DNA from: Enterobacter phage EC-F2
Length of the DNA: 64,000 bases
Reading direction: 5' to 3' (one strand)
Sequence record: MN508624.2
Part shown: positions 8,347 to 54,700 of the stretch, piece after piece
Layout of the letters: every line of letters starts with the position of its first letter
Position numbering within the stretch: the first letter of the stretch is position 1
The notes under the pieces: generated by a model
Seen by the model: only the letters and a program-made list of their open reading frames with translations
The model's database searches: none
What the model was told of the DNA's origin: nothing
Program-made: the position numbers and the translations under genes

Positions 8347-8350
8347 TACA

Positions 8351-9044: not shown

Positions 9045-9109
9045 AATGCTTGCACTGAATCGTGAGTATGGTAAAGTACACACATCGAAACGAAACTGAG
9101 GATGACATT
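9045..9109 (+). promoter_or_regulatory. promoter (aaTGCTTgca box-like, then N12, then TATGGT) followed by conserved leader ACACATCGAAACGAAAC
   Basis: MotA-box-like motif 12 nt upstream of a -10-like hexamer. The leader is shared with other cassettes. Confidence 0.35.
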
Positions 9110-9406: not shown

Positions 9407-9496
9407 AGGTATACGGGGAAAACAGAAAGAACAATCTCCGAAGAGATTGATGTAATCAATGAATTTCTATGTAGACCATACGTTAAGAGAGTTATT

Positions 9497-10212: not shown

Positions 10213-10214
10213 TA

Positions 10215-10436
10215 ATGGGTTACGTAATTTATTTCGATTGTTCGGATCTTGATCCGTTCGTTCTGCAACAGGCAAAGAAATATCATCAAGATATCATTGG
10301 TATCAGTGTCACGAACGATGATATGTTGTGCATCGAATTTGATTATTATCGTACATTTGAGCGTGACAAATTCCTTGCGGATATTGAAGCGTTTAAAAGT
10401 ACCCTTTTCTTTGATCGTTATGAGGTTAAATCTTGA
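10215..10436 (+). CDS. hypothetical protein (73 aa)
   Basis: Coupled ORF. Confidence 0.45.
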   Translation: MGYVIYFDCSDLDPFVLQQAKKYHQDIIGISVTNDDMLCIEFDYYRTFERDKFLADIEAFKSTLFFDRYEVKS

Positions 10437-11050
10437 AACCAGTTATTCTTACCGACATTGACGGGATCGCCGTAAAATGGCAGTCGGGGTTGCCGTTCTT
10501 TTTGTCTAAACACAACATGCCGACCGATATCGCGCTGGATATGGTTACGGATGAAAAGTTCCGCGATATGACCGAAATCTTCGGGTGTGATCACCAACTG
10601 GCGAAAATTCTCATGGAAGAATACAACAACAGTTCGTTTATTCGCTATCTAAGCGCGTATGACGATGCGTTGATTGTGATCAACCGCCTGAAAGCCCAAT
10701 ATGATTTCGTGGCTGTCACGGCGCTGGGAACCACTCCTACGGCAAGCCTTAACCGTATTGCGAACCTGAACACGCTGTTCCCTTCTGCATTCAAAGAAGT
10801 GATGGTTGTCGGGCATGGTGAAACCAAAGTACACCGCTACCTGGAAGCGAAAGCCAAATATGGCAATCGTCTGGTTTGCTTCGTTGATGATCTTGCGGTA
10901 AACTTAAACGAATGTCATAACGTCATCAGTCAGTTGCCGTTATTCCATATGTTGCGTGGTGAACGTGAAACCCCGTGGTCGCCTCACCAGTCAGTTAAAT
11001 CATGGTTTGAAATCGAAGAGAAATTACATGATCTTACAGATTCTAAATGA
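10433..11050 (+). CDS. HAD-superfamily hydrolase/phosphatase-like protein
   Basis: N-terminal ILTDIDGI (DxDG motif I of the HAD family). Confidence 0.45.
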   Translation: MKPVILTDIDGIAVKWQSGLPFFLSKHNMPTDIALDMVTDEKFRDMTEIFGCDHQLAKILMEEYNNSSFIRYLSAYDDALIVINRLKAQYDFVAVTALGTTPTASLNRIANLNTLFPSAFKEVMVVGHGETKVHRYLEAKAKYGNRLVCFVDDLAVNLNECHNVISQLPLFHMLRGERETPWSPHQSVKSWFEIEEKLHDLTDSK

Positions 11051-12551
11051 ACTCGCTTCGACTCTGAAAATTTCAGAGAAGGAAGCGATCCTGAAACGTA
11101 ATGCAGGTAATGATCTGCTAAAAGAGATTTTCCGCATTACGTACACGAAACAGATTATGTTTCACATTAAGAAGTTTCCGCAGGTGGACGGTAAGCCAGG
11201 CACAACCCCGCTATCGAATGCTATCGCGGATTTGATGTCTGATTTGGCAACGCGAAAATATACGGGCAATGCAGCCCGTGATCGTCTGCTGGATATCGTA
11301 TCATCGGTGAATGAGAATGATCGCGAAGTGCTTCGCCGTATCATTAACCGCGATCTGGAATGTGGTGCTGGTACAACGTTACCAAACCGCGTATGGAAGA
11401 AACTCATTCCAGAACAGCCTCAGTGCCTCGCTACGCCGTTTAGCGAAAAAGCATTAAAACGTATTCGCTTCCCTGCTTACTCGCAGCTTAAAGCCGATGG
11501 TGCGCGTTGTATGTCCGATCTGTTAGAGAATCAGATCCGCAAAGCAACCCGCGCGGGAAATGAGTATGAAGGTTTGGTGAATCTGGACAAGGATCTGAAA
11601 AAGATTCGTGAATATCTGGGTTATGATGTTGTACTTGATGGAGAACTGATTTATGTCCCTGCTGAAAAAACTGCTGTCGTTCCTTCAAACAGCGTTCCAT
11701 TTAGTCTTGCTGGGTTTATGGGCGATGACGACGATTCTGTTTCTGACCTTGTGGCAGATGTTAGGCGGGAAGCTACCGAGAACGAGACACAAGCGGAAGC
11801 GAAACGCGAAGAGGGCAACGGGATTGTAAACAAATCCCTGAAAGGCACTATCAGCGACGAAGAACAGCGCAATATCGTTTATGTTGTCTGGGATATCGTA
11901 CCGTATGAAGTGTACTATGGTGATGCTCCGAGTGTTCAACCATATTGCGATCGCTTTAGCATCCTGGAAGGTGCGCTGGCTGGCTCTGGTGTAACATCGG
12001 TTAAGCTGATCCCTTCTATCCTGGTGCAGAACTACGCGGAAGCGAAAAAGGATTACAACAATTACCGCAATGACGGTAAAGAGGGTTCAATCCTGAAAAA
12101 CGTTGATTTCAAATGGAAGGATTCACGCGTTGCGGATCAGGTGAAGTTGAAGAACAAAACACCGATCGAACTGCGAATCATTGACGTGTACGAACACACC
12201 AAAGAACCTCATAAGGTTGGCGGGTTCGTGGTTGAGGACTTATCAGGAGAAGCCAGAACAAACACAGGTTCCGGTCTGACTGATACGGATTACCGATACG
12301 ATGAAGACGGTATTAACCGCGTGTACATCCCGTTAGAAGAACGTGGTGAACTGGATCGCGAATACATTATGGCGAACAAAGATGACTATATCGGCGCTAT
12401 CGTCGAAATGGAAGTTGACGGACTCCAGAAATCGAAAACGCGTAAGAAGGGCGAACCTGAGTTCAGTTTCTTCCTGCCAATCATCAAGAAGATTCGACGC
12501 GATAAGACCGAACCGGATGACATTCACGTTATCTTCGCTGATCTGTTTTAA
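11028..12551 (+). CDS. 30: ATP-dependent DNA ligase (T4 gp30)
   Basis: Co-linear with T4 ligase (MILQILNEL, YSQLKADGARC adenylation lysine motif, SNSVPF..NKSLKGTISDEE, C-terminal EGSILKN). Confidence 0.9.
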   Translation: MILQILNELASTLKISEKEAILKRNAGNDLLKEIFRITYTKQIMFHIKKFPQVDGKPGTTPLSNAIADLMSDLATRKYTGNAARDRLLDIVSSVNENDREVLRRIINRDLECGAGTTLPNRVWKKLIPEQPQCLATPFSEKALKRIRFPAYSQLKADGARCMSDLLENQIRKATRAGNEYEGLVNLDKDLKKIREYLGYDVVLDGELIYVPAEKTAVVPSNSVPFSLAGFMGDDDDSVSDLVADVRREATENETQAEAKREEGNGIVNKSLKGTISDEEQRNIVYVVWDIVPYEVYYGDAPSVQPYCDRFSILEGALAGSGVTSVKLIPSILVQNYAEAKKDYNNYRNDGKEGSILKNVDFKWKDSRVADQVKLKNKTPIELRIIDVYEHTKEPHKVGGFVVEDLSGEARTNTGSGLTDTDYRYDEDGINRVYIPLEERGELDREYIMANKDDYIGAIVEMEVDGLQKSKTRKKGEPEFSFFLPIIKKIRRDKTEPDDIHVIFADLF

Positions 12552-15744: not shown

Positions 15745-17495
15745 TAATGGCTAGCAATCCATATTTTAACGAAGAACAACGTCGCCGGATGCAAAATCCA
15801 CCAAAACCACAGGCGCAACCAACTGTTCGGAAGATCCAGGCAACGTTAGATAAAGATTCGATGCGCGAGTTAAAGGATATCAATGATAACACCCTTGAAA
15901 CCGCGCTGAATACTCTGGACATCAAAGACAGTGTGAAATCCTTTGAGGATCGTTTCAAAGAGAAATTCGCTGGCTTCCAAGAACAATACGAACAGGATCA
16001 GCAACCACTTGCTGAACAGTTGCCCGATTTTGTTGGTCCATCGCGTCCACCATCACTGACAGACAACAGCACGAACAGTGTTGATAACTCCGTCAGTGTA
16101 TCGAACCAACACAACCCTTTCAGCAAGATCGAAACATACACCGGAACGATTGCGGAAGCAATCACCAAGTTCCTCGAACTCGCTGAGAAGAAACCGGAAC
16201 CGCCACCTGAACCTGAACCAGTACCGGAAGAGGAACCGGAGGTCGATCGGGACAACAAGAAGATCCGTGATAAGGATAAAGACGAGAAGAAATTCAGTAA
16301 GAAAGTATTGGCCTTACTGGGTTCAATCAAGGATAATACATCCGGTCTTCTGGCTCGCTTTATCGGGTATTCTCTCGAAGCGATAGCGAAGTTTGCCAAG
16401 TGGACTTTGATTATCGGTAGTATCGTGTTTGCTATTGAAGTTTTAGGTAAAGTCATCGCTTCATGGTTTAATGATTTGCTTAATGATGGAGAAGCATCCA
16501 AAAAGTTGTTTGGATCATATTTCAACAATATAAAAGCGTTAGCGAAAAGTATAGATGACGGATTAGATAAATTAGGTGATAAAGATGCAACATTAGCAGA
16601 AAAATTAAAAGCTCTGTTAGTAGAACCGTTTAAGATTCTGGGCAATACCATTAAAACCGCAATCACGGAAGGTATCGGTAATCTAATCTATGCTCTGGGC
16701 GAATATACCGGATCAGAAACGATTACTAACGCCGGACGCGGAATGAAAGTATCAGCACTGCGCGACAAACAAAAATACGGTCTTGACATTGATCCCGATG
16801 ACCTGATTCTGCTGAAACAACAGGAGATCCAGGATCAGAATGATAAAGTGGTTGAGGCACGTTCTAAGGTTGTCGAACAGGTTAAGGCTACTCAAGGTAC
16901 ATTCTCATATGGTTTCGGGCAACAGACGGACGCACAGAAAGCGCTATCTAAGCAATTGGAACAGATGCGCGATCGTGTGGCTATTGAAGAAAAGATCACC
17001 GAAGAGAAGAAGAAAGAACTGAAAGCATTGCAGGAAAACCCCAAACTGTTACAGGCTGAGGTTGATAAAGAGAATGCCGCTAACCGTAAGCGCGTGAACG
17101 AAACCAAACAGACCGAAACCGAGCAAGCGAAAGCGAAACCTAAAGCGGATAGTGAATTTGATCAGGGCGATGAAATTCTGAACAAAGACAATCTGACGGG
17201 CAACGATAAAAAGGTAATGGAAAAACTCATAGAATCGCTTGAAGAGAAAAACAATTCGAACAAGCTGAATGAGGACGACAAAGACCGCTATCGTGATATG
17301 ATCTCCCGCTGGCAGGAAAAGATCACCGCAGTACCGGAAACGAGTGCAAGTATTGACAAGCAACCGGAAGCAGCGAAAGCCCCTGTTCAGCCTACAACGC
17401 CTAACAGTGTTCAGGTCAATAACAAAACAGTAAACAACACGGTTCAGCATTCAGTACAACGAACTGACCGTAAACCATTGATTGCATTAGCTTAA
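15741..17495 (+). CDS. 29: baseplate hub / tail-length determinant gp29-like (584 aa)
   Basis: Size close to T4 gp29 (590 aa). Coiled-coil and PE-rich linker. Precedes gp48. Confidence 0.65.
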   Translation: MIMASNPYFNEEQRRRMQNPPKPQAQPTVRKIQATLDKDSMRELKDINDNTLETALNTLDIKDSVKSFEDRFKEKFAGFQEQYEQDQQPLAEQLPDFVGPSRPPSLTDNSTNSVDNSVSVSNQHNPFSKIETYTGTIAEAITKFLELAEKKPEPPPEPEPVPEEEPEVDRDNKKIRDKDKDEKKFSKKVLALLGSIKDNTSGLLARFIGYSLEAIAKFAKWTLIIGSIVFAIEVLGKVIASWFNDLLNDGEASKKLFGSYFNNIKALAKSIDDGLDKLGDKDATLAEKLKALLVEPFKILGNTIKTAITEGIGNLIYALGEYTGSETITNAGRGMKVSALRDKQKYGLDIDPDDLILLKQQEIQDQNDKVVEARSKVVEQVKATQGTFSYGFGQQTDAQKALSKQLEQMRDRVAIEEKITEEKKKELKALQENPKLLQAEVDKENAANRKRVNETKQTETEQAKAKPKADSEFDQGDEILNKDNLTGNDKKVMEKLIESLEEKNNSNKLNEDDKDRYRDMISRWQEKITAVPETSASIDKQPEAAKAPVQPTTPNSVQVNNKTVNNTVQHSVQRTDRKPLIALA

Positions 17496-17506
17496 AGGAA
17501 ATTTAA

Positions 17507-18601
17507 ATGAAAATTACAGTATTGCAAGACACTGTACAATCATTTGCAGAAATCAAAAATGCTGGCATCCCCTCTGGGGGTGCTGCAACAACTAAAAACG
17601 CGTTGACTCAACCGATCGTAACAGCGGAATTTCCTTCCCAACGTGCAGCAGGTATTGATAACGCTTATAATGCATCAAGCCTGTATAATAACGGCTTGCT
17701 GTTCACTGCATATGAATTCACGGGCGGACTTGCGCCAGGTAGCAAAGACAACTACCGCTCATTACGTCAGGCAGCACAGAATGCGCAACAGATCCTGAGC
17801 GCGAATACAGGCAACGTTCGATATAAACAAGTTTTGAATAGCCGTACTATTGGTACGCTCAACCCCATTTGTCAAATACTTTTACCGCGAAGCCTGAACG
17901 ATAACGAGGTTAACAGCCACCGTTACCAAGATGCAACCGATAGTATTGTTGCTAAAGGACCGTCAAGAGTTGTGTCTAACGTTATCTGGGGCGCTATTGA
18001 GTCTGCTAGTGGTGGTATTTTGGCAGACCGTAGAGAAGCAGTTGATGTTGGTACGAAAGCAGCGTTTCAAGGCTCTGATAAGCGCACAAAGATGTATTAC
18101 AATACATTCGTTATCGAAAGTCGTTATGACCTGTTGGAACTTATTAAAATCTATTATCTGTTCACGGTGCTGGGTTATGGTACGACATCAGGAGGAACTG
18201 CCGCCGAAATAGCAGAATTAGCTAAACAAACAATTAATACATCATCAACAGCAGGGGCAAAACTTATTAATAATGCAATTGCAGGAAATGGCCCTACACC
18301 TACTGTATCTAATGGTTCGATTATAAGCGATCAGGCGGTGGATTTTGTTACTAATATAGAAGTTATTAAATCGCCTCCAGTGTGGTTTATTCGTGACTTC
18401 CAGACAGGTGACAGTTTGCGGTTCCCTCATTCCACGTTCGGGCCAGCAGGTATTACCAGCGTTCGTTTCGGGCGTACAATGGACAACATTGTAAATACGT
18501 TAAGAGAATCACCGAACACCCCGATCGCAGTTGAAATCGAAATTCAGTTTATGGAACTGATCGATATGCGTCAGGATTCGATTTTTGATACGCAGTATTA
18601 A
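17507..18601 (+). CDS. 48: baseplate tail-tube cap gp48-like (364 aa)
   Basis: Same length as T4 gp48. Sits between gp29 and gp54. Confidence 0.65.
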   Translation: MKITVLQDTVQSFAEIKNAGIPSGGAATTKNALTQPIVTAEFPSQRAAGIDNAYNASSLYNNGLLFTAYEFTGGLAPGSKDNYRSLRQAAQNAQQILSANTGNVRYKQVLNSRTIGTLNPICQILLPRSLNDNEVNSHRYQDATDSIVAKGPSRVVSNVIWGAIESASGGILADRREAVDVGTKAAFQGSDKRTKMYYNTFVIESRYDLLELIKIYYLFTVLGYGTTSGGTAAEIAELAKQTINTSSTAGAKLINNAIAGNGPTPTVSNGSIISDQAVDFVTNIEVIKSPPVWFIRDFQTGDSLRFPHSTFGPAGITSVRFGRTMDNIVNTLRESPNTPIAVEIEIQFMELIDMRQDSIFDTQY

Positions 18602-18610
18602 GGGGGAACA

Positions 18611-19474
18611 ATGTTCTATAGCGTAGATGAATTTTTGTCAGGAATGGCAAACCGAGACTTCCAGCGAAGCAACCTGTTTAGTGTTGTATTCGCAACCAGT
18701 CCAGCATCACGCATTCTCGACAGCACGATCGGGAGTATCCGCGATACTTTAATTGATGGTACTATGAGTTCCATTAACGCGAATAACCCGAACGAGTTCA
18801 TGAACGCTATTACAGGGGGCGTAAGCAAGCTATTCAGCTATACGGTTGATAAAGCTATTATGTCCCTGAACAAAACAGGTTTCAGTAAAATCATGGGGGC
18901 GTTAAGCCCTCGTTTAATTACTTCCCTGTTTGGTGATAGTGTTTACGGACAGATGCTAACAGAATTCCGTGACAAAATGATGTACAATATGGGGTTGAGC
19001 ATCGTTGGTGTTCAGTTGCCTGGTAAAACACTGGGTTATGAATACGTGTATAATGGCGGTGTACCCCAGATCCGATTCACCCGACCGGAGAATGGTGAAT
19101 TATCGCTAACGTTCCGTGTGGATTCAGAAGCGCGTAACCTGAAAGTATTCAACGAATGGTTATCAGCTATTCGTGATGATGTCTCAGGCCAGTTCGCATT
19201 CATTGATGAAGTATCAAGCGCGATCCAGGTAAACTTGCACAATCGCGATGGTGTCCCGCACAGCACGTATGTATTCCAGAAGTGTTTGCCTGTTAAAGTC
19301 AGCAACCCAGAACTGAGTTATGAAAGCAATAACGAAATCTGGACATTCACTGTTGACTTTGCATATAAAACAGGCTGGCTTGTTGAAGCAGATAAAGAAG
19401 GTTGGGACGGATTCAAACAATCACTTATCGAAGGTGCAGCAATTGCCGTTCGTGGTGTGGTTACAGGACAATAA
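18611..19474 (+). CDS. 54: baseplate tail-tube initiator gp54
   Basis: N-terminus MFYSVDEFLSGMANRDFQRSNLFSVVFATSP aligns with T4 gp54 MYSLEEFNNQAINADFQRNNMFSCVFATTP. A gp19-like motif is also present. Confidence 0.85.
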   Translation: MFYSVDEFLSGMANRDFQRSNLFSVVFATSPASRILDSTIGSIRDTLIDGTMSSINANNPNEFMNAITGGVSKLFSYTVDKAIMSLNKTGFSKIMGALSPRLITSLFGDSVYGQMLTEFRDKMMYNMGLSIVGVQLPGKTLGYEYVYNGGVPQIRFTRPENGELSLTFRVDSEARNLKVFNEWLSAIRDDVSGQFAFIDEVSSAIQVNLHNRDGVPHSTYVFQKCLPVKVSNPELSYESNNEIWTFTVDFAYKTGWLVEADKEGWDGFKQSLIEGAAIAVRGVVTGQ

Positions 19475-24661: not shown

Positions 24662-26908
24662 TTAGATTTTGACTTCTTTTTCTTCCAGGACGATTTCACA
24701 TTCGAATGATGTGGTTTCCCAGACTTTCCAGAAATCGGATGGAATATTATCTTCTTTCGGAAGAATATCTTTTGCAGCGATAGAAACTTTGGTTTCTTCG
24801 AAGTCCAGATCCGCGAACCATGCATGGGCTACTACAACACCGTACATTACGCGACTTAAACGGGCATTCAGTTTACGGACTTCCTGAATCGTTGCCTTTG
24901 TCTGCTTATCAAGATACTCGACTACCTGATCTTTGTCAAGCGCATCCAGTTCAGATTTCACCTGATCATAAGCCCACAGGATAATCAGGTCGCCGTTGTT
25001 CAGTTTCTTCTTACCTTCTTCACGCTTCGCGACGGTAGCCGCTACAGCAGGAAGGGAGGAAACACCCTTGATTTTCACGTTCAGTTCTTTCGACATGTAA
25101 ACATCAGTCGATTCTGTGCGCTCAACCTTCGGAGAGAACCCGTAATCACGAATACCCTGTTCAGACAGCCATTCACCCGCAGCCTCACCAAAGCGCTGTT
25201 TCAGCCCTTCTGCGTTGCGCAGTCCGATCGCGTTGTCACGGAAGAACTTCATAACCTTCTGACGGCCTTTCAGGATTTCCAGACGCACGTTATCAGTCAC
25301 GAACTCTTTACCGCTTAACCCGCGAGTCATGCCACGGTTAACCAGAGGCAGAGAGGTAAAGTCTACCAGAACAGACATACGATCATCACCGATTTTTTCG
25401 AGCGGCTTGATAGTCAGGCCAGAAGCACGAAGGTTTTTCAGTGTCGGAATATCGGTTTCCAGCGGCAGAACTTTAACGTTCACGATACCATCTTTAACGA
25501 TGGTGAAGTTACGCACCTGCTTAGTTTCGACTTTTTCCGGCAGACCGAATTCTTTCTGTTTGCTTTCTGGGATAGTCACATACCCTTCCAGATCCGTGTT
25601 GATGGAAATGTTCGGACGGGAACTGTTACCCACCAGATGTTTAACCGATACTTTGGTTGTGGTTTGGGTAAATTTCGGTGTCCAGACTTCATGCGCTACC
25701 ATTTGCGCCGCCAGTGCTTTACGTTCTTCTGGGGTTGCAGCGTTTGCGATCTGTTCGGTCAGTTGATCCAGTGTATCATCTTCTTTCTGTACCGTCTGAC
25801 GGCCTGTGCGGTTGTACGCCCAGTGCTCAGAAGACAGGTCGATCACTGTGTCAGTTTGTGCCAGCAGTTCGAGCGCATCAACCAGAGTGAACGCGTTTTC
25901 GTCTGGAACCATGTTGTAATCAATACCATCAACGAAACGCTGTGATGGATCTACAACAGCCTGTGCAATCAGGTCTTTCGCGTTGGAGTAGTCCTGTTTG
26001 GTAAAGCAGTTGTCATACGCCTTGATCAGACGGACATCACCCAGCTTTTGAAGCACTTTCCATGCCAGATCAGGGTTCATTGTGTGCAGTGCATGATAAA
26101 GCACGACATACAGAACTTGCTGTTCGCTGGCGATGTTCGGATCGAAACCGTCAACATCGTTGATCGCGTTTTCACCCAGCGCCCAGATGTTTTTGATGTG
26201 TTCTGGAACCAGCACAACACCGTTTGCAGCGTTCAGGACATACACGCGCCCTTCGTCCAGGTAGATCGCGTGGGTAGCATCAGCAACTTTGACTTCGATA
26301 CGTGCGGAAGTCTGCGCGGTGATGATTTCGTTAAATGCTGGTTCGTATGCGTCGAAACCTTCAACGAATTTGTGCAATGCGTTGGTTGCTTCTGCCATTT
26401 TTTCCAGCAGAGGACGGTTTACATAATAACCGTATTCCAGGAACGCGATACTGTTGAAAGTCAGTGGCAGAACCGCACACGCTTTCAGAATATCATCGGT
26501 ACGCCAGCAGTTATCATAACCATCGGTCAGGAAGATCAGGCTGTTCAGGTTGCCGTTTTCGGATTGCAGATCGGTAGCGATTTCCGCAGCCAGATTCAAC
26601 GGCTCAACAAAGCCAGTACAACCCGTAGGTTTCAGGTAACGGTCGATAGCCGCGCAGATGTTAGACAGGTCAGAGACATTGCTAACCTTCTCACCACGGA
26701 ACACCGTGCCGTAATCGCCTTTGCTGGAGAAGTACAGGATCGAAACGGTGTCATCCTGTTTAACCAGACTCGCCAGGTTTGCTTTCAGGTGTTTACGGAT
26801 CTTAGGCAGTTCGTTGTACATTGAACCGGATACGTCACACACGAAAACGTGGTTTGTCGGGGTTGGCTTCGATACAGCGTTTTTGAATTCGATATTTGTG
26901 ATTGACAT
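24662..26908 (-). CDS. von Willebrand factor A (vWA) domain protein, 748 aa
   Basis: N-terminal MIDAS motif VFVCDVSGSM...T...LTDG. Large uncharacterised C-terminal region. Confidence 0.65.
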   Translation of the reverse strand: MSITNIEFKNAVSKPTPTNHVFVCDVSGSMYNELPKIRKHLKANLASLVKQDDTVSILYFSSKGDYGTVFRGEKVSNVSDLSNICAAIDRYLKPTGCTGFVEPLNLAAEIATDLQSENGNLNSLIFLTDGYDNCWRTDDILKACAVLPLTFNSIAFLEYGYYVNRPLLEKMAEATNALHKFVEGFDAYEPAFNEIITAQTSARIEVKVADATHAIYLDEGRVYVLNAANGVVLVPEHIKNIWALGENAINDVDGFDPNIASEQQVLYVVLYHALHTMNPDLAWKVLQKLGDVRLIKAYDNCFTKQDYSNAKDLIAQAVVDPSQRFVDGIDYNMVPDENAFTLVDALELLAQTDTVIDLSSEHWAYNRTGRQTVQKEDDTLDQLTEQIANAATPEERKALAAQMVAHEVWTPKFTQTTTKVSVKHLVGNSSRPNISINTDLEGYVTIPESKQKEFGLPEKVETKQVRNFTIVKDGIVNVKVLPLETDIPTLKNLRASGLTIKPLEKIGDDRMSVLVDFTSLPLVNRGMTRGLSGKEFVTDNVRLEILKGRQKVMKFFRDNAIGLRNAEGLKQRFGEAAGEWLSEQGIRDYGFSPKVERTESTDVYMSKELNVKIKGVSSLPAVAATVAKREEGKKKLNNGDLIILWAYDQVKSELDALDKDQVVEYLDKQTKATIQEVRKLNARLSRVMYGVVVAHAWFADLDFEETKVSIAAKDILPKEDNIPSDFWKVWETTSFECEIVLEEKEVKI

Positions 26909-29116: not shown

Positions 29117-30037
29117 TCAATCAGACAGTGCAAGCACTTTTTTAATTTGTTTTGCAATTGCTTCGATCACCGGAACCGAAACAGAGTTCCCTGCCTGTTT
29201 ATATGCTTGCTTCTTGCTTGTCGGGATCTGGAATGAATCTGGGAAGCCCTGCAAGCGGAAACATTCACGCGGGGTTAATCGTCGTGGGTTCTTCCCGTCC
29301 TGTAACACCAGACATTGAACACCGTCCTTGAAGTATTGGGCTGTTATCGTCCCAGTACACACAGAATCGCTTGTGACGGCCTGATAACCGAAACCCTTAC
29401 CGTTTGCCTTATTTCGTTCCTTACGCTCTCTAAAGCCTTTCCATGCGTTATCTGAGAGGGTGAATGAATCATCAGCATCTTCGAGGATGTCGCCTACGCG
29501 TGTAGGTGTACGCGGGGGAACAGGAAATGAAAAGAATACATCATCCAGGAAGCAGACAATAAACACGCGTTCCCGTCTTTGGGGTAGTCCGAAATCCTTT
29601 GTGTTCAGGCGTTGATAGAATACGTTATATCCTTCGGCCTCCAGAAGCCCGTAAATCGTTTTAAACGTCTTCCCCTTGTCATGGGTTAGCAGTTCAGGCA
29701 CGTTCTCAAAGAACAACACACGGGGCTTTTTAGCGCGTATAATGCGGAGGATTTCGAAGAACACCGTACCGCGTACATCATCAAAGCCCAGTTTCAATCC
29801 GGCTTTACTGAACGCCTGACACGGGAACCCCGCGAGCAGGATATCATGATCAGGTACTTTGTTTTCATCAATGGCGAATAGATCACCCTGTAGGTTATCA
29901 TCGCCCCAGTTTTCGATATATGTTTGCTGTGCGAACTTGTCGATTTCAGACGTTAAAAGGCATTCGACACCGCCGAACGCCTTATCAAATCCTAATCGAA
30001 CCCCGCCCACACCAGCGCAGAGGTCAATTATTTTCAT
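29117..30037 (-). CDS. DNA (cytosine-5)-methyltransferase, Dcm-like orphan MTase (306 aa)
   Basis: Motif I IDLCAGVGG, motif IV GFPCQAFS, motif VI ENV, and a QRRERVFIV region. Confidence 0.85.
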   Translation of the reverse strand: MKIIDLCAGVGGVRLGFDKAFGGVECLLTSEIDKFAQQTYIENWGDDNLQGDLFAIDENKVPDHDILLAGFPCQAFSKAGLKLGFDDVRGTVFFEILRIIRAKKPRVLFFENVPELLTHDKGKTFKTIYGLLEAEGYNVFYQRLNTKDFGLPQRRERVFIVCFLDDVFFSFPVPPRTPTRVGDILEDADDSFTLSDNAWKGFRERKERNKANGKGFGYQAVTSDSVCTGTITAQYFKDGVQCLVLQDGKNPRRLTPRECFRLQGFPDSFQIPTSKKQAYKQAGNSVSVPVIEAIAKQIKKVLALSD

Positions 30038-30303: not shown

Positions 30304-30536
30304 TCCGTTTTAATACCATGTCGGTATGCGTCAATCCCCAGCGGGGTAATCAGCAACCATGCTTTCGAATTATCGTGATAGCCCGTTACCCTTCGAGCGT
30401 AACCTTTTTGAATCAGGGCATCACGCCCTGATTTGCTGGGTACGTCATCGAAATCTAAGTCTAGCACCTTAGTTGCATATCCGTAAAGTTTATACAGAAC
30501 ATCAATTTCAGCGCCGGACAATTTAGGATACATCAT
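30294..30536 (-). CDS. hypothetical protein (80 aa)
   Basis: Coupled ORF. Confidence 0.45.
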   Translation of the reverse strand: MMYPKLSGAEIDVLYKLYGYATKVLDLDFDDVPSKSGRDALIQKGYARRVTGYHDNSKAWLLITPLGIDAYRHGIKTEWH

Positions 30537-31534
30537 TTGTAATACCCCACAACATGATCGCGGTATACGCGTTCGATGAAATCGTTCCAGAATTCGCGGT
30601 CAACTTCTTTCGGATATGTTGAAATCGCTGCAAGCCGTTCGACTTCGCCCATGACTTCTTCCAGCTTTTCCTGTACGGTTGCGAACGGTACACCGCCAGC
30701 TTTAACCAGTTTCAGGAATGCGCTATCAGGCAGAGGATAAACGATATCACCATCTTTGTAAATCTGGATCAACTGCATACCACCGCGTAAAGCGTGACTT
30801 AAAGCCTTCCAGTCGATGCCGTTGTTGGCTTCTGCTTGTCGTGCGCGTTCTCCGTATTCATCCCAGAGTTTATACACAGACTTACGCATTTCATCGGCTT
30901 TGATCGTGAACTGGAATTTACGCCCCAGCACTTCATAGAAGTCCTGACAACCAGATTTCATTGTCGTGTCGGTAACGAATCGACAGAACTCGTTTGTAGG
31001 GAAACGATCCTTGATGTCAGACACTTTCACTTCACGCGTATAGCGTTTCATATCTGGTGTGAATTCCTGAATACCACCGATCGTTTCGGTTTCTTTCAGT
31101 ACATCGACAACTTCGCGCAGTGCAGCCAGTCGGGAACCCTTCACGCCATATTTCGCGGCTTGCTTACGAACATAACCGAACAAGCCAGTTAGTTCAGTGG
31201 TGTAAAAACGCCAGCGGTTAGCGCGGATATACTGCCAGATTTCAGAGTTAGCGATCAGCTTGTCATCCGAAGCGTGAAGCATATCGAGCGCTACGGTATC
31301 ACCATCACACGCAAGACTAATGAACTTAGTCAGACTATACAACTGACGGTCAACGTCGTCTACGGTGTTTTTAGAGCTTTTATCGCCTGTGCTGGTGTCA
31401 ATAGTCTTCGGGGCTTTCCCCAGGAGAATATCGCGCGGGTGCGGGAGAAAGATCCCTTTATAGTCTTTGTCGCTTGTCGGTGTGTTCAGTCCGTACAGGT
31501 GAGAACCGAACACGGTTTCCATTACAGTTTTCAA
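30533..31534 (-). CDS. polymerase-beta-superfamily nucleotidyltransferase-domain protein (333 aa)
   Basis: N-terminal GSHLYGLNTPTSDKDYKG fits the NTase GS-x9-13-[DE]h[DE] motif. Long helical C-terminal region. Confidence 0.55.
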   Translation of the reverse strand: MKTVMETVFGSHLYGLNTPTSDKDYKGIFLPHPRDILLGKAPKTIDTSTGDKSSKNTVDDVDRQLYSLTKFISLACDGDTVALDMLHASDDKLIANSEIWQYIRANRWRFYTTELTGLFGYVRKQAAKYGVKGSRLAALREVVDVLKETETIGGIQEFTPDMKRYTREVKVSDIKDRFPTNEFCRFVTDTTMKSGCQDFYEVLGRKFQFTIKADEMRKSVYKLWDEYGERARQAEANNGIDWKALSHALRGGMQLIQIYKDGDIVYPLPDSAFLKLVKAGGVPFATVQEKLEEVMGEVERLAAISTYPKEVDREFWNDFIERVYRDHVVGYYK

Positions 31535-33189: not shown

Positions 33190-33247
33190 TTTCATTATTC
33201 ATGCGGTATGTGTATATAATACAAAAGCCCTCACGCGAACGCAAGGG
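33190..33247 (-). repeat. PeSL-like cassette (same hairpin as 22209-22242; degenerate leader)
   Basis: aaagccctcacgcgaacgcaagggctttttt is duplicated exactly. Confidence 0.55.
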
Positions 33248-33263
33248 CTTTTTTAATCTTTTA

Positions 33264-34331
33264 TCAGAGTCCCGTGAAAGCCACAACGATTTGATAGTGG
33301 TCATCGAAGAATTCCCCTTGTCGTTGTACGACCTCATGTAAGGGCATCCAGAACGCCTCTAGCGCATCGTCAGAACCGCCCATAATGCGGGGCAGACTAC
33401 CATCATTGTTAGGCTCTAACTTGATGTACTGCGCCACAGTCGGTTTTGAGAAGTATACGGAACGCTTCGGATGATCGAACAGCATCGAATTACGGATTGA
33501 ACCACGAATAACCTTTTCAGGAACCTTGATCCGTACCTCTTCGAGCAGTTCACGGATCGCACAATCCAGGAACGTTTCATTTGCGTTTTTGTGTCCACCA
33601 GGAAGGGCTAACGCGTCTTTACCTGGGGCAAACTTACGGCGAATTACCAGCAGGTGATTGTTACACACAACCACACTATCACCCGTGCAGCAGTTTAGCG
33701 CTTCTGGGTATGGGTAGTTTTTGAATTTCTCCAATTCGCTTTCCCATTTCTCGTATTCGTAGTACAGTCGCCAAAATGTATCCGTCATCATCCATGAATT
33801 GATATAACTCACAGTAGACGAAGGAACATAACGAGATAGTTTCTTATCCCATCCATTCTTATGCAAAAAGATGGTTGGTCGCAAATCGGTCGCAGATAAA
33901 TCTTTCCCGTCAACCTTAACTGGATCTACCGGAACATGAGTCCATCCAAACGCTTTCAGCCAGTATGAATCAGCATCCTTTTCGTAACCATAGATCGCGA
34001 TGTTGTCGCCTTTGGTTTCGTCGATTGCTGTACGAACAGAGGTTTTCCATTTTTCTTCGTTGTAAAGATAATCAGGAATATGAGCAAATTTAACACGACA
34101 AACATCTTCGTATTTGTATTCAGTCATCAGCCACGAAAAGATCATTCTTTCGCGTTCGTTCGCTGTCAGCGGGTTTAAAACGTTAGGGTAAGCATATGCT
34201 GAACCCAGAAGGATGTAAACGGTTTTTGCTTCTTCGAGTGCTTTACGCACCATTGCTGCATGACCATTATGGAAGGGTTGGAATCTGCCAATTACGACAG
34301 CTTTATCAAATTGTTTCATAACGTGCTCCAC
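33264..34331 (-). CDS. natV: bifunctional nicotinamide-mononucleotide adenylyltransferase / Nudix ADP-ribose pyrophosphatase (NadM/NatV-like)
   Basis: N-terminal VIGRFQPFHNGH (HxGH nucleotidyltransferase motif). C-terminal Nudix box GGHKNANETFLDCAIRELLEEV. Confidence 0.75.
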   Translation of the reverse strand: MEHVMKQFDKAVVIGRFQPFHNGHAAMVRKALEEAKTVYILLGSAYAYPNVLNPLTANERERMIFSWLMTEYKYEDVCRVKFAHIPDYLYNEEKWKTSVRTAIDETKGDNIAIYGYEKDADSYWLKAFGWTHVPVDPVKVDGKDLSATDLRPTIFLHKNGWDKKLSRYVPSSTVSYINSWMMTDTFWRLYYEYEKWESELEKFKNYPYPEALNCCTGDSVVVCNNHLLVIRRKFAPGKDALALPGGHKNANETFLDCAIRELLEEVRIKVPEKVIRGSIRNSMLFDHPKRSVYFSKPTVAQYIKLEPNNDGSLPRIMGGSDDALEAFWMPLHEVVQRQGEFFDDHYQIVVAFTGL

Positions 34332-34343: not shown

Positions 34344-34442
34344 ATCATAAAACAGACGCAATCACCAATACACCAAGAAAACCGCCAATAAAGCCGAAGA
34401 ATAGCGAAATGAAGATAGTAAGGATGATCTGTTTTATGTTCA
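34344..34442 (-). CDS. 32-aa hydrophobic micro-protein (MNIKQIILTIFISLFFGFIGGFLGVLVIASVL)
   Basis: ATG with SD. A single TM helix. Lies between the SPFH gene and natV. Confidence 0.35.
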
Positions 34443-34454
34443 TTGTAGTATTCT

Positions 34455-34480
34455 CGTTCGGAGAAAGCCCCCGCTCTGGG
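34455..34480 (-). terminator. hairpin agcccccagagcgggggct
   Basis: After the SPFH gene stop. Confidence 0.45.
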
Positions 34481-34492
34481 GGCTTTAAACCC

Positions 34493-35419
34493 TTATTTAC
34501 GAGAATCGAAAATCACTTTACCAGCGTAATCAGAACCCATGACAGTTTGAGGTACACCGCCCTGATATTTTTCCGCGATGGTCTGCTGAACATCAAGTTC
34601 TTTCCAGCGGATCATTTCTGGGGTGATTGTGCGTTGCAGAATGGCGTTCGCTTCGGCTTCTTTCTTAGCCGCATACAGACGGGCATCAGCATCACGTTCG
34701 TTAGCTTGTGCAGCGTTGCTACGGGCTTCTTTGTCGGCTACTGCCTGAACAACCGCCTGTTGAGCGATTTGCTCTTTACGCGCAAGTTCTGCTTTTTCTG
34801 CATTCACCTGTTCTTCACGAATTTTCGTGTTTTCAACCTGTTTCTTGATCGCTTCCGGCAGGTCGATATCCTGCAAGAATACCTGTTTCACGGTGTAACC
34901 GTAAGGACGGGCATACTCTTCTACTTCCTGCTGAATCGCGATCTGTAGCTGGCTTTGAACTTCTGCATTATACAGATCCTGTGCTTTCGGTACAGATTTA
35001 CCGAACTCACGGACAGTTGACAGAAGTTTTTCAGTCACATATTTATCCAGCGCCTGATCCTGACTACCCGCATTGATACGGTTGATCGGGGCTTTGCTAC
35101 CATCGAACTGTAACATCACGGTCATATCCACAGTGGATTTGAATTTATCCTGGGACGGAACCTGCAATTTGTCAAACTTCATTGCGATGTCTTTGGTGTT
35201 GAACACCTCGAAATCAGCCAGTGGGTTTACCAGGTGGAAGCCAGGCAGAACAGGCTTCGGTGAAACTTTACCCATGAAGGTTTGAGTTTTTACCGTACCA
35301 TCCTGAACGATAGTGTACGAGTTCGGAACCAGCCACAGTGCGGCGATTACGCCCAGAGCGATCAGAGTGGTTTTCTTTGGGTTGTTTACGATAGTGTTTA
35401 AGTTCATCATTATTTCCAT
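34493..35419 (-). CDS. SPFH/band-7 (prohibitin/HflK-like) membrane protein
   Basis: N-terminal TM segment, band-7 core, and a C-terminal AQ/E-rich coiled coil. Confidence 0.65.
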   Translation of the reverse strand: MEIMMNLNTIVNNPKKTTLIALGVIAALWLVPNSYTIVQDGTVKTQTFMGKVSPKPVLPGFHLVNPLADFEVFNTKDIAMKFDKLQVPSQDKFKSTVDMTVMLQFDGSKAPINRINAGSQDQALDKYVTEKLLSTVREFGKSVPKAQDLYNAEVQSQLQIAIQQEVEEYARPYGYTVKQVFLQDIDLPEAIKKQVENTKIREEQVNAEKAELARKEQIAQQAVVQAVADKEARSNAAQANERDADARLYAAKKEAEANAILQRTITPEMIRWKELDVQQTIAEKYQGGVPQTVMGSDYAGKVIFDSRK

Positions 35420-35480
35420 TGGGTTTATGTTTCAATTCGATAGTTATTCTATCATCACTTTTTCGCTTGTCAAACTCTTT

Positions 35481-37966: not shown

Positions 37967-38139
37967 TCTCTCGCCTCTTTACGTCCGGCATCAACCAGAT
38001 CATCCACAAAGCTAACGATATCATCCCACCAATCCAGCGCTTCCTGTGATGCTTTCGCGTCACCATCAAGGAAACGGTCACGAGCGCTCGCAAACTTCTC
38101 TATTTTGCTATAGAGCTTTTCTTTATTTGCTTCAATCAT
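37967..38139 (-). CDS. hypothetical 56-aa protein (not in track)
   Basis: ATGA overlaps at both ends (38136-38139 and 37966-37969). Confidence 0.35.
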
Positions 38140-38633
38140 GATAAGTCCGCCTTACGTGGATCAACCGATGGATCGAAGTGAACGACGATGATCGGGTAAT
38201 CTCCCGTACACTCGTCAATAATAGCGCTAATACGCAACCAATCGCCCCCAGCAAGCCCCGCACCGATAAGAGGGGTAATGATAGGCAATTTTTCAGGAAA
38301 CGCACTGGCGCGTTCTACGGCGCTCACAAAGCATGACCGGATTGCATCATAATCCACTTGTGGGCCAGTACCCCAGAATTTAAACTGAGTGTAGGCATTG
38401 AAGACAATCTGACCTTCTTCCGTCATGTAGATGGAGTTAGTGCCTAACTTCCGCTGATCGCCTTTCATAGTCAGTGCATCAATTTTGAACGCACCAGGGA
38501 TTTTGTGCTTCACTTCTTTAGCAATACCCGCGCCCATGTTGCAATAACAGTTACACCCATGAATCAAGTGTACTTTTCGTTTCAGGAACAACTCTACAGC
38601 GTTCCCTTTGATTTCTTTAATAATCATTTTCAT
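38136..38633 (-). CDS. macrodomain (ADP-ribose binding/hydrolase) protein
   Basis: HGCNCYCNMGAGIAKEV and PLIGAGLAGGDW match macrodomain Gly-rich motifs. Confidence 0.65.
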   Translation of the reverse strand: MKMIIKEIKGNAVELFLKRKVHLIHGCNCYCNMGAGIAKEVKHKIPGAFKIDALTMKGDQRKLGTNSIYMTEEGQIVFNAYTQFKFWGTGPQVDYDAIRSCFVSAVERASAFPEKLPIITPLIGAGLAGGDWLRISAIIDECTGDYPIIVVHFDPSVDPRKADLS

Positions 38634-38715
38634 CACCTGTATAGTGGCGGTAAGCCAGCACAGCCAGCCCCGCGATCACAACCACAACACACATTAAGAT
38701 ATAACCTGTGTTCAT
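38618..38715 (-). CDS. 32-aa single-TM micro-protein (MNTGYILMCVVVVIAGLAVLAYRHY...)
   Basis: Translationally coupled upstream of the macro gene. Confidence 0.35.
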
Positions 38716-42486: not shown

Positions 42487-43833
42487 TCAAAAATTGTCTT
42501 CAACAAAAGCTGCAAGTCGCCCACGATATACGGTATCCAGGATCACATGACTTGAATGACCGTACTCTTTAAGTTTTTCAACCGCATACACAAAGCCGTT
42601 GTTAACAGCAGTATTGCGCGGGTTGTCAATCTGTTTAATGTTCCCGCATAGTATCAGAAGGGTGTTCTCACCGCAACGGGAAATGATGGATTTGATTTCG
42701 TGATTGCTCAAGTTTTGACATTCATCAACAATCAGAACCGAACCTTTACCCGGATCAGGATGCCCGATTGAGCGCCCACGGAAGTAATACAGGCTAGGGA
42801 ACTGGACAACGTTTTTCTCCAGCAGCCCTTCTACGTATTTGTCAACTTCCGGTTGATCCTTAAACAGAATGTTCAGGCTCGTAATACATGGTTCTACAGC
42901 AGGACGCAGTTTTTCGCCAAGAGTACCAGGTAAGAACCCGATTTCGCCCGACAGAGGGCTATCTGCCTTGACATACATCAGGTTTGCGAAGTGTCCCGCG
43001 TTTACCATGTGCATTGCACCAGCAACAGCCAGCATGGTTTTACCTGAACCCGCCGCGCCCATGATGGTCACAACGTCATTGTTTTTGTCCAGAATAGCAT
43101 CAACGAATGACGCTTGCAGAGCATCGCGAGGCTGGATTGTTTTCATCAGCTTACGCTTTAACGCCTGTTCGTGCTTAATAGGCAACACTTCAAGCTGAAA
43201 CTCTCCAGCATTCACCACACGCCCTACAATCTCACCACACGATAGAATGTATTGGTTAGGGTAGAAATCCGCGTCAGGAAGCGATGAATACGTTATAACG
43301 GCAACAGGCCCGACATACTCCAGGACTTCAACAGTTTCCCAGAACAGAGGCAGGTCGATATAACCTGAATACAACACATCACTATCTTTCAGCGAGTCAT
43401 CGCCAGTGTATTGAAGAACCGAACAACCTTTAGACATCGCGATCAACAGCATGTTAATGTCACGAGTCACCAGAGTTGCGCCCTGCTGAATACAAGTTGC
43501 AATGATCCGCACATCCTGTTTATCCAGAGGGAATTCTTCGGTGCCGTCATAATCGACGATTTTCAGTGTTACGCTTTCCGGTACTGCTGGGTTCGATAAG
43601 TTTAACGAAACCCCTGTTTGGGTAATTGCTTCATAATTTTGTCCCAGGATTGCTTTGGACAAAAGCCGGATCGCCAGTCGTGCTTCATGAGCGGTTCGCT
43701 CTTTGCTTTTCAGGTGATCCAGTTCTTCCATCGTTGCAGCGGTGATAATGATTTCGCTGTCAGGTTCGATGTAAGAATAGATTGAATATGGGTTACTAAT
43801 CAAAACATTGGTGTCTAATACGTATTTTGACAT
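42487..43833 (-). CDS. phoH: PIN-domain + PhoH-like ATPase (PhoH2-type)
   Basis: N-terminal VLDTNVLI (PIN), Walker A GAAGSGKT, Walker B LIVDECQN. Confidence 0.8.
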   Translation of the reverse strand: MSKYVLDTNVLISNPYSIYSYIEPDSEIIITAATMEELDHLKSKERTAHEARLAIRLLSKAILGQNYEAITQTGVSLNLSNPAVPESVTLKIVDYDGTEEFPLDKQDVRIIATCIQQGATLVTRDINMLLIAMSKGCSVLQYTGDDSLKDSDVLYSGYIDLPLFWETVEVLEYVGPVAVITYSSLPDADFYPNQYILSCGEIVGRVVNAGEFQLEVLPIKHEQALKRKLMKTIQPRDALQASFVDAILDKNNDVVTIMGAAGSGKTMLAVAGAMHMVNAGHFANLMYVKADSPLSGEIGFLPGTLGEKLRPAVEPCITSLNILFKDQPEVDKYVEGLLEKNVVQFPSLYYFRGRSIGHPDPGKGSVLIVDECQNLSNHEIKSIISRCGENTLLILCGNIKQIDNPRNTAVNNGFVYAVEKLKEYGHSSHVILDTVYRGRLAAFVEDNF

Positions 43834-47860: not shown

Positions 47861-48153
47861 CAGTAAGTAATCTCCGCAAACTGCATTCTACGCTCAATCG
47901 CATGGATAGCGTTATCACGCTGTTCTTTGTTTTCATATCCAGCCCAGGTAATCGGGGTTGAACAGATCAGGTGAAAAGTGATTGCTGGGTGTCTCTTCCC
48001 TTCAACAACGATTGTTGCATCATCTTCGATCCAGGTTACGTGATCCAGATTCACCGGATAGTTTCTTACGGTAACAGATTCACCAACCAAAGGCGACACG
48101 TCCAGAATATCACGATCGCTGACATATGATTTAATACGAGATACGATTAACAT
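47860..48153 (-). CDS. hypothetical protein (97 aa), translationally coupled to the radical-SAM gene
   Basis: Stop/start overlap at 48153. Confidence 0.5.
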   Translation of the reverse strand: MLIVSRIKSYVSDRDILDVSPLVGESVTVRNYPVNLDHVTWIEDDATIVVEGKRHPAITFHLICSTPITWAGYENKEQRDNAIHAIERRMQFAEITY

Positions 48154-49304
48154 TATTTTAACTCCACTGCATATACATCGGTTTCAGGGGCTTTGTGTAC
48201 GCGCATATCTTTACCACATACCGCATAAGCCGGACAGTTACGGCAACCGTTATGATCCTTGTTGCCCGTCAGTTCTTTACGGAACTGTTTTGTTTTCGGG
48301 TGTTCCCAGATATCCTTCACAAAATCTTCGGCTTCCAGAACATCCAGACCTTCTTCCCAGCCACCTTCAACCCAGCGTTCGGTAAACGAGCAAGGGAAGA
48401 ACTGACCACGTTCGTTGATATAAGAGCTAAACATCGTCGCTTCACAGTCTTCGGCGTATTGCTTGTACTGTTCGAAGTTCGGGTGTCCCTCCATCGCTTC
48501 AACGAAAGCGGGGGCTGAACAGCTATCGAATCCAAATCCTACACCAGAATCGAGGCAATATTCAACAAGTTTTTTATATTGTTCGCGGGTAACGGTGTCC
48601 CAGTTCTTACCGCGTCCTTTTTGTTTCAGTCCCAGGAACACGATCGCGTTGACTTGTTTCAGGCGCGGATCATTCTTCACGGCATCAACCACGTTAAACG
48701 CATCATCATAGGTTTTCGAGCTAACCATGAAGTGAAGGTTGATTTGCTGTTGTCCGGCTTCTGTCAGGTTCGCTACTGAGTCGAAAGCGACATCAAAACC
48801 AGCGTGTTTATAAACCGATACCGCAACAGCCCCAGCAACCGCCGCTAAACGCGCTGCAACGTCTTTTGATACGTCAGCAATGGTAAGGTTCGGCACAATG
48901 CCTTTAGAACGCGCATACGCCATCATATCGAACATATCGGGGTTTGTTTGCCCCTGTGCATCAGCACCGAGTGCGCATTGAGTAAGCCAGGGCATTTTGT
49001 CGATGATTTTTTTGAAGTTGGCAAGATCCATGTTGAACCCGTTCGGGTTATTGGACTTGTAGCAGAACCCGCAGAGTTTACCCGCTGGACCGTTGCATTT
49101 GGTAGTGATCTCGATATCGAGAATTTCGGGGAATGGTGCGTATTCTGGATCGTGGGAATATGTTGCACCCCAGCGAGCGAATTCACCAGTATCAACGTTG
49201 AAATTATAGTTGTAGAACTTCGAGCGAGCGAAGCGCATATTGCCGTGTTGATAGATGAACAGGGACGGCGCTTTGATGCTGGTAACGATATCGACAGTTT
49301 TCAT
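48153..49304 (-). CDS. radical-SAM-like enzyme with atypical Cys spacing and a C-terminal Cys cluster (start set at MKTVDIV)
   Basis: TTKCNGPAGKLCGFCY (C-x8-C-x2-C), glycine-rich GADAQGQTNPD region. C-terminal CSF...NGCRNCPAYAVCG is twitch/SPASM-like. Confidence 0.5.
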   Translation of the reverse strand: MKTVDIVTSIKAPSLFIYQHGNMRFARSKFYNYNFNVDTGEFARWGATYSHDPEYAPFPEILDIEITTKCNGPAGKLCGFCYKSNNPNGFNMDLANFKKIIDKMPWLTQCALGADAQGQTNPDMFDMMAYARSKGIVPNLTIADVSKDVAARLAAVAGAVAVSVYKHAGFDVAFDSVANLTEAGQQQINLHFMVSSKTYDDAFNVVDAVKNDPRLKQVNAIVFLGLKQKGRGKNWDTVTREQYKKLVEYCLDSGVGFGFDSCSAPAFVEAMEGHPNFEQYKQYAEDCEATMFSSYINERGQFFPCSFTERWVEGGWEEGLDVLEAEDFVKDIWEHPKTKQFRKELTGNKDHNGCRNCPAYAVCGKDMRVHKAPETDVYAVELK

Positions 49305-49314
49305 AATATAATTC

Positions 49315-49521
49315 TCAAAATTTAACATGGGATTGGAAGACAGCGCGAGCAAGGCTTTCATTGTCGAACGGTATCGACTGGTGTTTCTCTTTGCTGTCAA
49401 TGTTAACGCGCCAGAACTCACTCGAACCGTTTTTGGTGGAGTAATGCATCAGCGTTACCGTTTTATTCTTTTCCAGGAAAGTACGTTTGTCAATCTCTGT
49501 TTTGATTTCGTGCTGCATCAT
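49315..49521 (-). CDS. hypothetical protein (68 aa)
   Basis: ORF. Confidence 0.45.
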   Translation of the reverse strand: MMQHEIKTEIDKRTFLEKNKTVTLMHYSTKNGSSEFWRVNIDSKEKHQSIPFDNESLARAVFQSHVKF

Positions 49522-53908: not shown

Positions 53909-54290
53909 TAGGCATCGCACCGAATGACAACAGCCCCATACGATGATCGTTATCTGATTCACCAGTGCTGAATTCAAATTCTTCACCGCTGATACTGATA
54001 GCACGGAAACCATCTTTCAGGTACGGCAACAGATACAGAGGGATCAGCATCATTTTTGAATCGTCATCCCACTTACGGAAGCCCAGGTTTTTCATTTCTT
54101 CCAGAGTCAGGTCATTTGGATCGACTGGTTCGAAATCAGGGGAAGCGTAAAGGCGTCCTGGAAGATCGCGAATATTTTTCACGGTGAATGAATCACCCCA
54201 TGACTTATACGCGATAGGTTCAGCGGCGCGGGTTGCGGTAGCCAGAAGGATCATTTGGCAGATTTGGAAAGTAGTTGCTTTTGGTTTCAT
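53895..54290 (-). CDS. hypothetical protein (131 aa)
   Basis: ORF. Confidence 0.5.
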   Translation of the reverse strand: MKPKATTFQICQMILLATATRAAEPIAYKSWGDSFTVKNIRDLPGRLYASPDFEPVDPNDLTLEEMKNLGFRKWDDDSKMMLIPLYLLPYLKDGFRAISISGEEFEFSTGESDNDHRMGLLSFGAMPNESR

Positions 54291-54700
54291 GATGTATATC
54301 CCACAAGTTTAGTCAGTAAATTCCCCATAGTCTTACGCGCATGATCGCGGATCTGGCTATACGGAACATATTTGAAGTCATCCATTTCAGTAATGGTTCG
54401 ACCATTTTTAACGAAGGTTGAAGCACAAACACATTTTTCTGCTTCGGGGTAATTATTACCCACATATACGAATAACACAAGCTCTTTTTTACTCGTATAA
54501 TCAATCAGACCCAGGCTCAACAGTTCGTGTTGTTCAACTACAACGCCCGTTTCCTCGAAGCATTCACGGATAGCAGCATTGATCGGGGATTCGCCTTTTT
54601 CGATATGCCCCTTTGGGATGTCCCAATGAGGCGTTTCGGTTGCGTGGCCCATTAAAACGCTGCCGTTATTCAGGAAGAGAATACCAGCAGACCGTTCCAT
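54287..54700 (-). CDS. Nudix hydrolase
   Basis: Nudix box GHIEKGESPINAAIRECFEETGV. Confidence 0.75.
   Translation of the reverse strand: MERSAGILFLNNGSVLMGHATETPHWDIPKGHIEKGESPINAAIRECFEETGVVVEQHELLSLGLIDYTSKKELVLFVYVGNNYPEAEKCVCASTFVKNGRTITEMDDFKYVPYSQIRDHARKTMGNLLTKLVGYTS

Follow-up and report, generated by a model that had tools for sequence, protein, structure and literature searches.

The 64,000-nucleotide stretch of the Enterobacter phage EC-F2 genome analyzed here (sequence record MN508624.2; hereafter, the window) carries on its minus strand a gene, natV (33264–34319; 351 codons plus stop), whose product is predicted to join a nicotinamide mononucleotide (NMN) adenylyltransferase (NMNAT) to a Nudix hydrolase of the ADP-ribose pyrophosphatase type. 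Together with NadV, a nicotinamide phosphoribosyltransferase (Nampt) encoded far away, it very probably forms the salvage pair for nicotinamide adenine dinucleotide (NAD+) that has already been described as NAD+ reconstitution pathway 2 (NARP2). The evidence consists of the domain architecture and catalytic motifs of NatV, its homology to solved and characterized enzymes, and an intact Nampt gene in close relatives of the phage. The “missing partner” of natV is most likely an effect of the window limits.

NatV is predicted to be a bifunctional NMNAT/Nudix enzyme

In what follows, motif residues are numbered on the 351-amino-acid protein, and Pfam domain limits on a 355-amino-acid translation of the same open reading frame (ORF) with an earlier start. 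Two Pfam domains scored above their gathering thresholds: CTP_transf_like (cytidylyltransferase-like, a HIGH nucleotidyltransferase; residues 13–70, E = 8.6e-9) and NUDIX (residues 219–340, E = 2.6e-14). The N-terminal domain, a HIGH nucleotidyltransferase of the archaeal NMNAT type, spans approximately residues 1–165 (33825–34319, minus strand). It holds the HxGH motif H17-N-G-H20 (34260–34271), with GRFQPFH17NGH20 aligned to GRFQPFHLGH in the structure 2qjo and to GRFQPFHKGH in 2qjt, and a second nucleotidyltransferase motif of the ISxTxxR type, LS142ATDLR147 (SATDLR, 33879–33896), which corresponds to FSSTAIR in 2qjo, FNATEFR in 2qjt, and ISATDFR in phages KVP40 and ValKK3. The C-terminal Nudix domain covers approximately residues 211–351 (33267–33689, minus strand) and contains the family-conserved FDHPKRS together with a Nudix box, GHKNANETFLDCAIRELLEEVRI (33528–33596), that runs from G242 to I264. 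Compared with the consensus Gx5Ex7REUxEExGU, residues E248, R256, E257, E260, and E261 are present, and the last glycine is replaced by arginine, as also in 2qjo; 2qjt has asparagine at this position.

Matches over the whole protein point the same way. Seven models of NCBIfam PRK05379 (“bifunctional NMN adenylyltransferase/Nudix hydrolase”) match NatV, six of them end to end (best E = 7e-75), and PHROG 395 matches with E = 3e-99. The top two matches among solved structures, 2qjo (E = 2.5e-53) and 2qjt/2r5w (E = 2e-45), are colinear with essentially the entire protein: NatV residues 4–349 align to 7–338 of 2qjo, and residues 3–346 to 6–342 of 2qjt. These structures represent Synechocystis slr0787 (2qjo) and Francisella tularensis NadM-Nudix (2qjt, 2r5w), with which the window enzyme shares GRFQPFHxGH, SxTxxR, REL.EE, and FDxPxRS. 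The phage enzyme KVP40 NatV aligns at 40.5% identity over 348 amino acids (E = 1e-85; window residues 7–351, KVP40 residues 4–341); it has the same two-domain architecture at a similar length (341 amino acids, compared with 351 in the window), and all motifs are common to both. The sequence supports the conclusion that the gene encodes a real NMNAT/Nudix fusion of the NatV/NadM-Nudix type. An earlier sequence-only reading of this DNA had proposed that identity and had made it depend on the catalytic histidines and glutamates; the Pfam, PRK05379, structure, and KVP40 NatV matches uphold it, and H17, H20, and the glutamates of the Nudix box are all in place.

NadV is encoded at a distant locus in the relatives of the window

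The window represents about one third of a genome of approximately 178 kb. Of its length, 63.3 kb aligns to positions 51485–116721 of its closest relative, Enterobacter phage ENT3 (PV358066.1), with a mean identity of 97.2%, and the window NatV is 99.4% identical to its ENT3 orthologue. Around natV, a 6-kb segment shares 98.9% identity with Enterobacter phages ENT3 and BHU20, 93.9–97.2% with Cronobacter phages Invicta, SemperBestia, Cronuts, leB, leN, leE, and JC03, and 91.9–98.0% with further phages of Enterobacter and Klebsiella. Invicta has been placed in the genus Pseudotevenvirus (family Straboviridae), which corresponds to the RB43/RB16 group among the T4-type phages, and by its sequence the window can be assigned to an RB43/leB-like T4-type phage of this genus.

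As the sequence-only reading had stated, NadV is not found in the 64 kb: tblastn with the Invicta NadV returned nothing better than E = 0.06 in the window. A single intact NadV of 477 amino acids is encoded in ENT3 at 7489–8919; natV lies at 80708–81760 on the opposite strand, 71.8 kb away. Projected onto the window, the ENT3 NadV gene would fall approximately 42.6 kb past the right end. The ENT3 protein is 99.4% identical to Invicta gp18 (9060–10493), which is annotated as a “putative nicotinamide phosphoribosyltransferase” and likewise lies far from natV (gp188, 113762–114817). Invicta NadV passes the cut-off of NCBIfam PRK09198 (460 bits, cut-off 405) and aligns over its full length to bacterial and human Nampt structures (E = 1e-106 to 1e-85), and judged by these matches it is a true Nampt. 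The nearest relatives by match to the natV region comprise 18 distinct phages, and NadV DNA was found in every one. More broadly, NatV occurs at an identity of at least 80% in 61 records, and NadV DNA in 65.

The absence of any enzyme to feed NatV, which the sequence-only reading had named as evidence against itself, was thus not observed, since NadV/Nampt is encoded in the genomes of all close relatives examined. Among the three fates which that reading had left open for the partner, a location elsewhere in the genome is the one borne out by the relatives, at approximately 72 kb from natV in ENT3; replacement and absence are not. Separation of the two genes by tens of kilobases is not unusual in T4-type phages. 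In KVP40, neither annotation nor tblastn places a nadV within 20 kb of natV (KVP40.0162, 94507–95532) in either direction, and in the KVP40-like phage ValKK3 no Nampt is annotated within 6 kb of natV. Vibrio phage PG07 carries an adjacent pair, with NadV at 16332–17633 and NatV at 17747–18694. With the two halves tens of kilobases apart, a 64-kb window of a T4-type phage will often contain one without the other, and an apparent natV “orphan” in such a window is therefore no anomaly.

The window gene and NadV as a probable NARP2 pair

From this gene content we infer the following activities. NadV/Nampt would convert nicotinamide and phosphoribosyl pyrophosphate (PRPP) to NMN, and the N-terminal domain of NatV would couple NMN to AMP from ATP, yielding NAD+. 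The Nudix domain would split the pyrophosphate bond of ADP-ribose, and possibly of related dinucleotides, into AMP and ribose-5-phosphate; ADP-ribose is presumably its substrate, by analogy with NadM-Nudix and KVP40 NatV. Ribose-5-phosphate would then be returned to PRPP for NadV by a PRPP synthetase; with no such enzyme found in the phage, this would evidently be that of the host. Acting together as NARP2, NadV and NatV would keep NAD+ available during infection and thereby blunt NAD+-depleting defenses of the Thoeris, DSR, and SIR2 types. The earlier proposal that NAD+ is rebuilt from ADP-ribose and nicotinamide would hold for nicotinamide; the other direct input would be PRPP, with ADP-ribose contributing only via the ribose-5-phosphate released by the Nudix domain.

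In the preprint of Osterman et al., NARP2 is defined by the presence of both genes in one genome, with no requirement for adjacency. Nmnat was also present in 94% of phages with a KVP40-type Nampt, NARP2 occurred in approximately 1.1% of phage genomes, and no phage carried both NARP1 and NARP2. Table S2 of that work classes the Nampt of Cronobacter phage GAP161, Citrobacter phage Miller, and Klebsiella phage KP15 as “Nmnat-associated”, and the start of the GAP161 Nampt sequence quoted there is identical to ENT3 NadV; the published NARP2 catalogue thus already covers the lineage. Experimentally, the NARP2 genes of KVP40 abolished type I Thoeris and DSR2 defense (Osterman et al.). According to the preprint, NARP2 also raised NAD+ even without a defense system, in agreement with earlier work on KVP40. 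SEFIR is listed in the preprint under NARP1, so the defenses that the sequence-only reading had named as countered mix two pathways: type I Thoeris and DSR2 fit NARP2, and SEFIR does not.

KVP40 and the window phage are both T4-type Straboviridae, and natV is unlinked to nadV in both, ENT3 standing for the window lineage. They differ in genus and host, the window lineage being Pseudotevenvirus on Enterobacteriaceae, and in the neighbors of natV, which in the window comes after an SPFH gene and a 32-codon micro-ORF. KVP40 itself carries nadR and a Sir2-like gene.

Several points weigh against the assignment to NARP2. NatV, which differs from the bacterial NadM-Nudix enzymes in being phage-encoded, does not reach the curated equivalog cut-off of any PRK05379 model (at best 252.4 bits, with a cut-off of 397). 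These cut-offs were built on bacterial enzymes and delimit narrow bacterial equivalog groups; the match nevertheless extends over whole models, and the low score therefore indicates a diverged member rather than a different architecture. The presence of NadV in the window's own phage is deduced from relatives that are 97–99% identical. One relative that still carries natV, leE, has a NadV annotated as two coding sequences (KX443552.1, 152634–154056), with a DNA match 11 nt short of the 1434-nt query, which suggests that its NadV is frameshifted and possibly inactive. Moreover, the experiments used KVP40 proteins, which are only approximately 40% identical to those of this lineage, and the anti-defense role proposed here would hold by analogy with them.

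The system is not new in kind: it is a known pathway in a catalogued lineage, the RB43/leB-like phages of Enterobacter, Cronobacter, Klebsiella, and Citrobacter, in which natV and nadV are already routinely annotated. In therapy phages of Enterobacter and Klebsiella, NARP2 may extend infection to hosts with NAD+-depleting defenses.

Alternative roles for NatV and NadV

It is possible, if rather doubtful, that the NadV–NatV pair is mainly a general metabolic booster, supplying NAD+ in all infections to the nucleotide and DNA metabolism of the phage, with anti-defense as a side benefit at most. The rise of NAD+ in defense-free cells described in the Osterman preprint would fit such a role, as would the nucleotide-metabolism genes nearby: tk near natV, and nrdD/nrdG, thioredoxin, and a methylase near nadV. 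It is countered by the abolition of type I Thoeris and DSR2 by the KVP40 pair in the same preprint. The two roles are also compatible, since they share the same biochemistry, and sequence separates neither from the other.

We regard it as unlikely that the Nudix half is the chief selected activity, removing toxic or signaling ADP-ribose or its derivatives, with NMNAT secondary. The Nudix half (33267–33689) is far more conserved than the NMNAT half (33825–34319), at 92% amino acid identity compared with 67% in the Slopekvirus phage Matisse and 51% compared with 36% in ValKK3. Between the window and Slopekvirus, 42% of the identical codons in the Nudix half differ synonymously; because synonymous differences remain so common, the conservation points to purifying selection. 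Recent recombination was considered as a source of the high Nudix identity with Slopekvirus and was ruled out by the same synonymous differences. The window also encodes a Macro-domain protein and a second Nudix hydrolase (described below), which could reflect a wider investment in ADP-ribose handling. Against a mainly Nudix-driven role, the catalytic motifs of the NMNAT domain are conserved and complete, the strict co-occurrence with NadV in the literature speaks for a requirement for NMN adenylylation, and unequal conservation of domains is common among fusion proteins. Conservation patterns are likewise behind two separate proposals that we consider quite improbable: that the Nudix half has a target of its own beyond ADP-ribose, such as ADP-ribose-derived immune signals, and that the 32-codon micro-ORF encodes a partner of natV.

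A true orphan NatV, with NadV absent, replaced by NARP1 (Adps/Namat) or NARP3 (NadR/PnuC) enzymes, or dispensable through use of host NMN alone, would agree with the lack of NadV in the 64-kb window. The relatives and the literature make it very unlikely: NadV is intact at a conserved distant locus in the close relatives checked, and the literature reports neither a phage with both NARP1 and NARP2 nor NadM without NadV. NARP1 acts by an ADP-ribose-pyrophosphate route and leads to the same end product, NAD+, and its Namat is homologous to Nampt (gp72 of mycobacteriophage LeBron is 30% identical to ENT3 NadV, E = 2e-39). In contrast to NARP2, it lacks an NMNAT step and depends on a Prs-like Adps, which was not detected in ENT3; the Nampt proteins of the relatives are classed as “Nmnat-associated”, not “Adps-associated”. 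The query for this search was the NARP1 Adps of LeBron, gp71 (LeBron is “Adps-associated” in the Osterman table); neither tblastn nor phmmer, the latter on six-frame ORFs of ENT3, returned a Prs/Adps homologue from ENT3 or the window at E up to 1, a moderately strong negative given the single distant query. The sequence-only reading had suggested a search of the genome for nadV/Nampt, Adps, and Namat genes; run in ENT3, it returned NadV as the only Namat/Nampt-family gene and no Adps. NARP3 resembles the pair considered here in that its last step is an NMNAT reaction by a HIGH-family nucleotidyltransferase. Its NMNAT is, however, fused to a ribosylnicotinamide kinase in a NadR-like protein and fed with nicotinamide riboside imported by the PnuC transporter, whereas the window NMNAT is fused to Nudix and paired with Nampt; NadR and PnuC were not searched for in ENT3.

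It is also highly improbable that the pathway resupplies NAD+ spent by T4-type ADP-ribosyltransferases (Alt, ModA, ModB) of the phage itself: such NAD+-consuming enzymes are common in T4-type phages, judging from the T4 annotation, and Iyer et al. tie ADP-ribose-processing domains to them in T4-like phages, but searches with T4 Alt, ModA, and ModB by phmmer and tblastn (E up to 1), which very divergent homologues could escape, were negative in the ENT3 genome and in the window. In T4, alt adjoins the DNA ligase gene; in the window, the interval between the ligase gene (10956–12551) and the baseplate genes (from 14000) holds no coding-strand ORF of at least 130 amino acids.

Start codon, neighborhood, and expression context of natV

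An ORF finder calls natV at 33264–34331 on the minus strand, with 355 amino acids and a GTG start. The GTG at 34331 overlaps a Shine–Dalgarno sequence, GGAG (34326–34329, minus strand), which precedes an ATG at 34319 by 6 nt and is invariant in four phages; a ribosome-binding site is also annotated there in the Miller and Matisse records. In the relatives, the annotated start is ATG, giving 351 amino acids. On account of this overlap, the spacing, and the usage in relatives, natV most likely starts at ATG 34319 rather than at GTG 34331 and is given here as 33264–34319. The ORF named in the sequence-only reading, 33264–34331 with the strand unstated, does exist, with a start that is probably 12 nt too far upstream.

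On the minus strand, the gene order is tk, a hypothetical gene, rI, a DUF5856 gene, an SPFH/band-7 gene, a hairpin, the 32-codon ORF, natV, a strong hairpin, small ORFs, and a gene for an RlaP/NrdC.11-like nucleotidyltransferase; this order around natV is kept in Miller and in Slopekvirus Matisse. The SPFH/band-7 membrane protein (34493–35419, minus strand; 308 amino acids) is encoded directly upstream of natV, an arrangement also kept in Miller and Matisse. Directly 3′ of its stop codon, a hairpin, AAAGCCCCC-loop-GGGGGCTTT (34464–34486, minus strand), has an invariant stem and a variable loop in four phages and may act as a terminator or attenuator before the micro-ORF and natV. The micro-ORF itself (34345–34443, minus strand), located between the SPFH gene and natV, is predicted to encode a hydrophobic membrane peptide of 32 amino acids, MNIKQIILTIFISLFFGFIGGFLGVLVIASVL. 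It is unannotated in Invicta, Miller, and Matisse, and DNA alignment and ORF listing show it to be intact in all three, with many DNA differences at third codon positions. A tblastn search of the phage collection with the peptide gave no match, most likely as a result of low-complexity masking.

A promoter scan placed two near-consensus sigma-70 promoter-like sites before the SPFH gene, among them TTGACA-16-TAGAAT (35446–35473, minus strand), which matches 11 of 12 consensus positions and has a TG. In the interval that separates natV from the SPFH gene, the scan, which was not systematic for T4-type middle and late promoters, found no sigma-70-type promoter. Immediately 3′ of the natV stop codon there is a terminator-like hairpin with a 13-bp stem (33223–33252, minus strand), at a site where Miller and Matisse have an annotated terminator. 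The site at 35446–35473 may be an early promoter of a unit comprising the SPFH gene, the micro-ORF, and natV. Because the sigma-70-like sites lie upstream of the SPFH gene, with none between it and natV, and natV is followed by the terminator-like hairpin, natV is plausibly the last gene of such an early unit.

The RlaP/NrdC.11-like nucleotidyltransferase (30533–31534, minus strand; 333 amino acids; Pfam RlaP, E = 1.3e-10) is encoded 1.7 kb downstream of natV. KVP40 and ValKK3 have a homologous NrdC.11-like gene approximately 5 kb from natV, in a different order.

Other genes in the window

The Macro-domain protein (38136–38636, minus strand; 166 amino acids; Pfam Macro, E = 3e-6) is encoded approximately 0.8 kb upstream of tk, on the same strand as natV and upstream of it. 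KVP40 has an annotated tk.4 with an A1pp/Macro motif, which is not beside its tk. The second, stand-alone Nudix hydrolase (54287–54700, minus strand; 137 amino acids; Pfam NUDIX, E = 2.5e-16), whose Invicta counterpart is annotated as a nudix hydrolase, may be an enzyme of the T4 NudE type. Further minus-strand genes encode a C5 cytosine DNA methylase (29117–30037), a 748-amino-acid protein with an N-terminal von Willebrand A domain (24662–26908), a PIN and PhoH fusion of 448 amino acids (42487–43833), and a SPASM-domain protein (48153–49421) that is annotated as radical SAM in Invicta.

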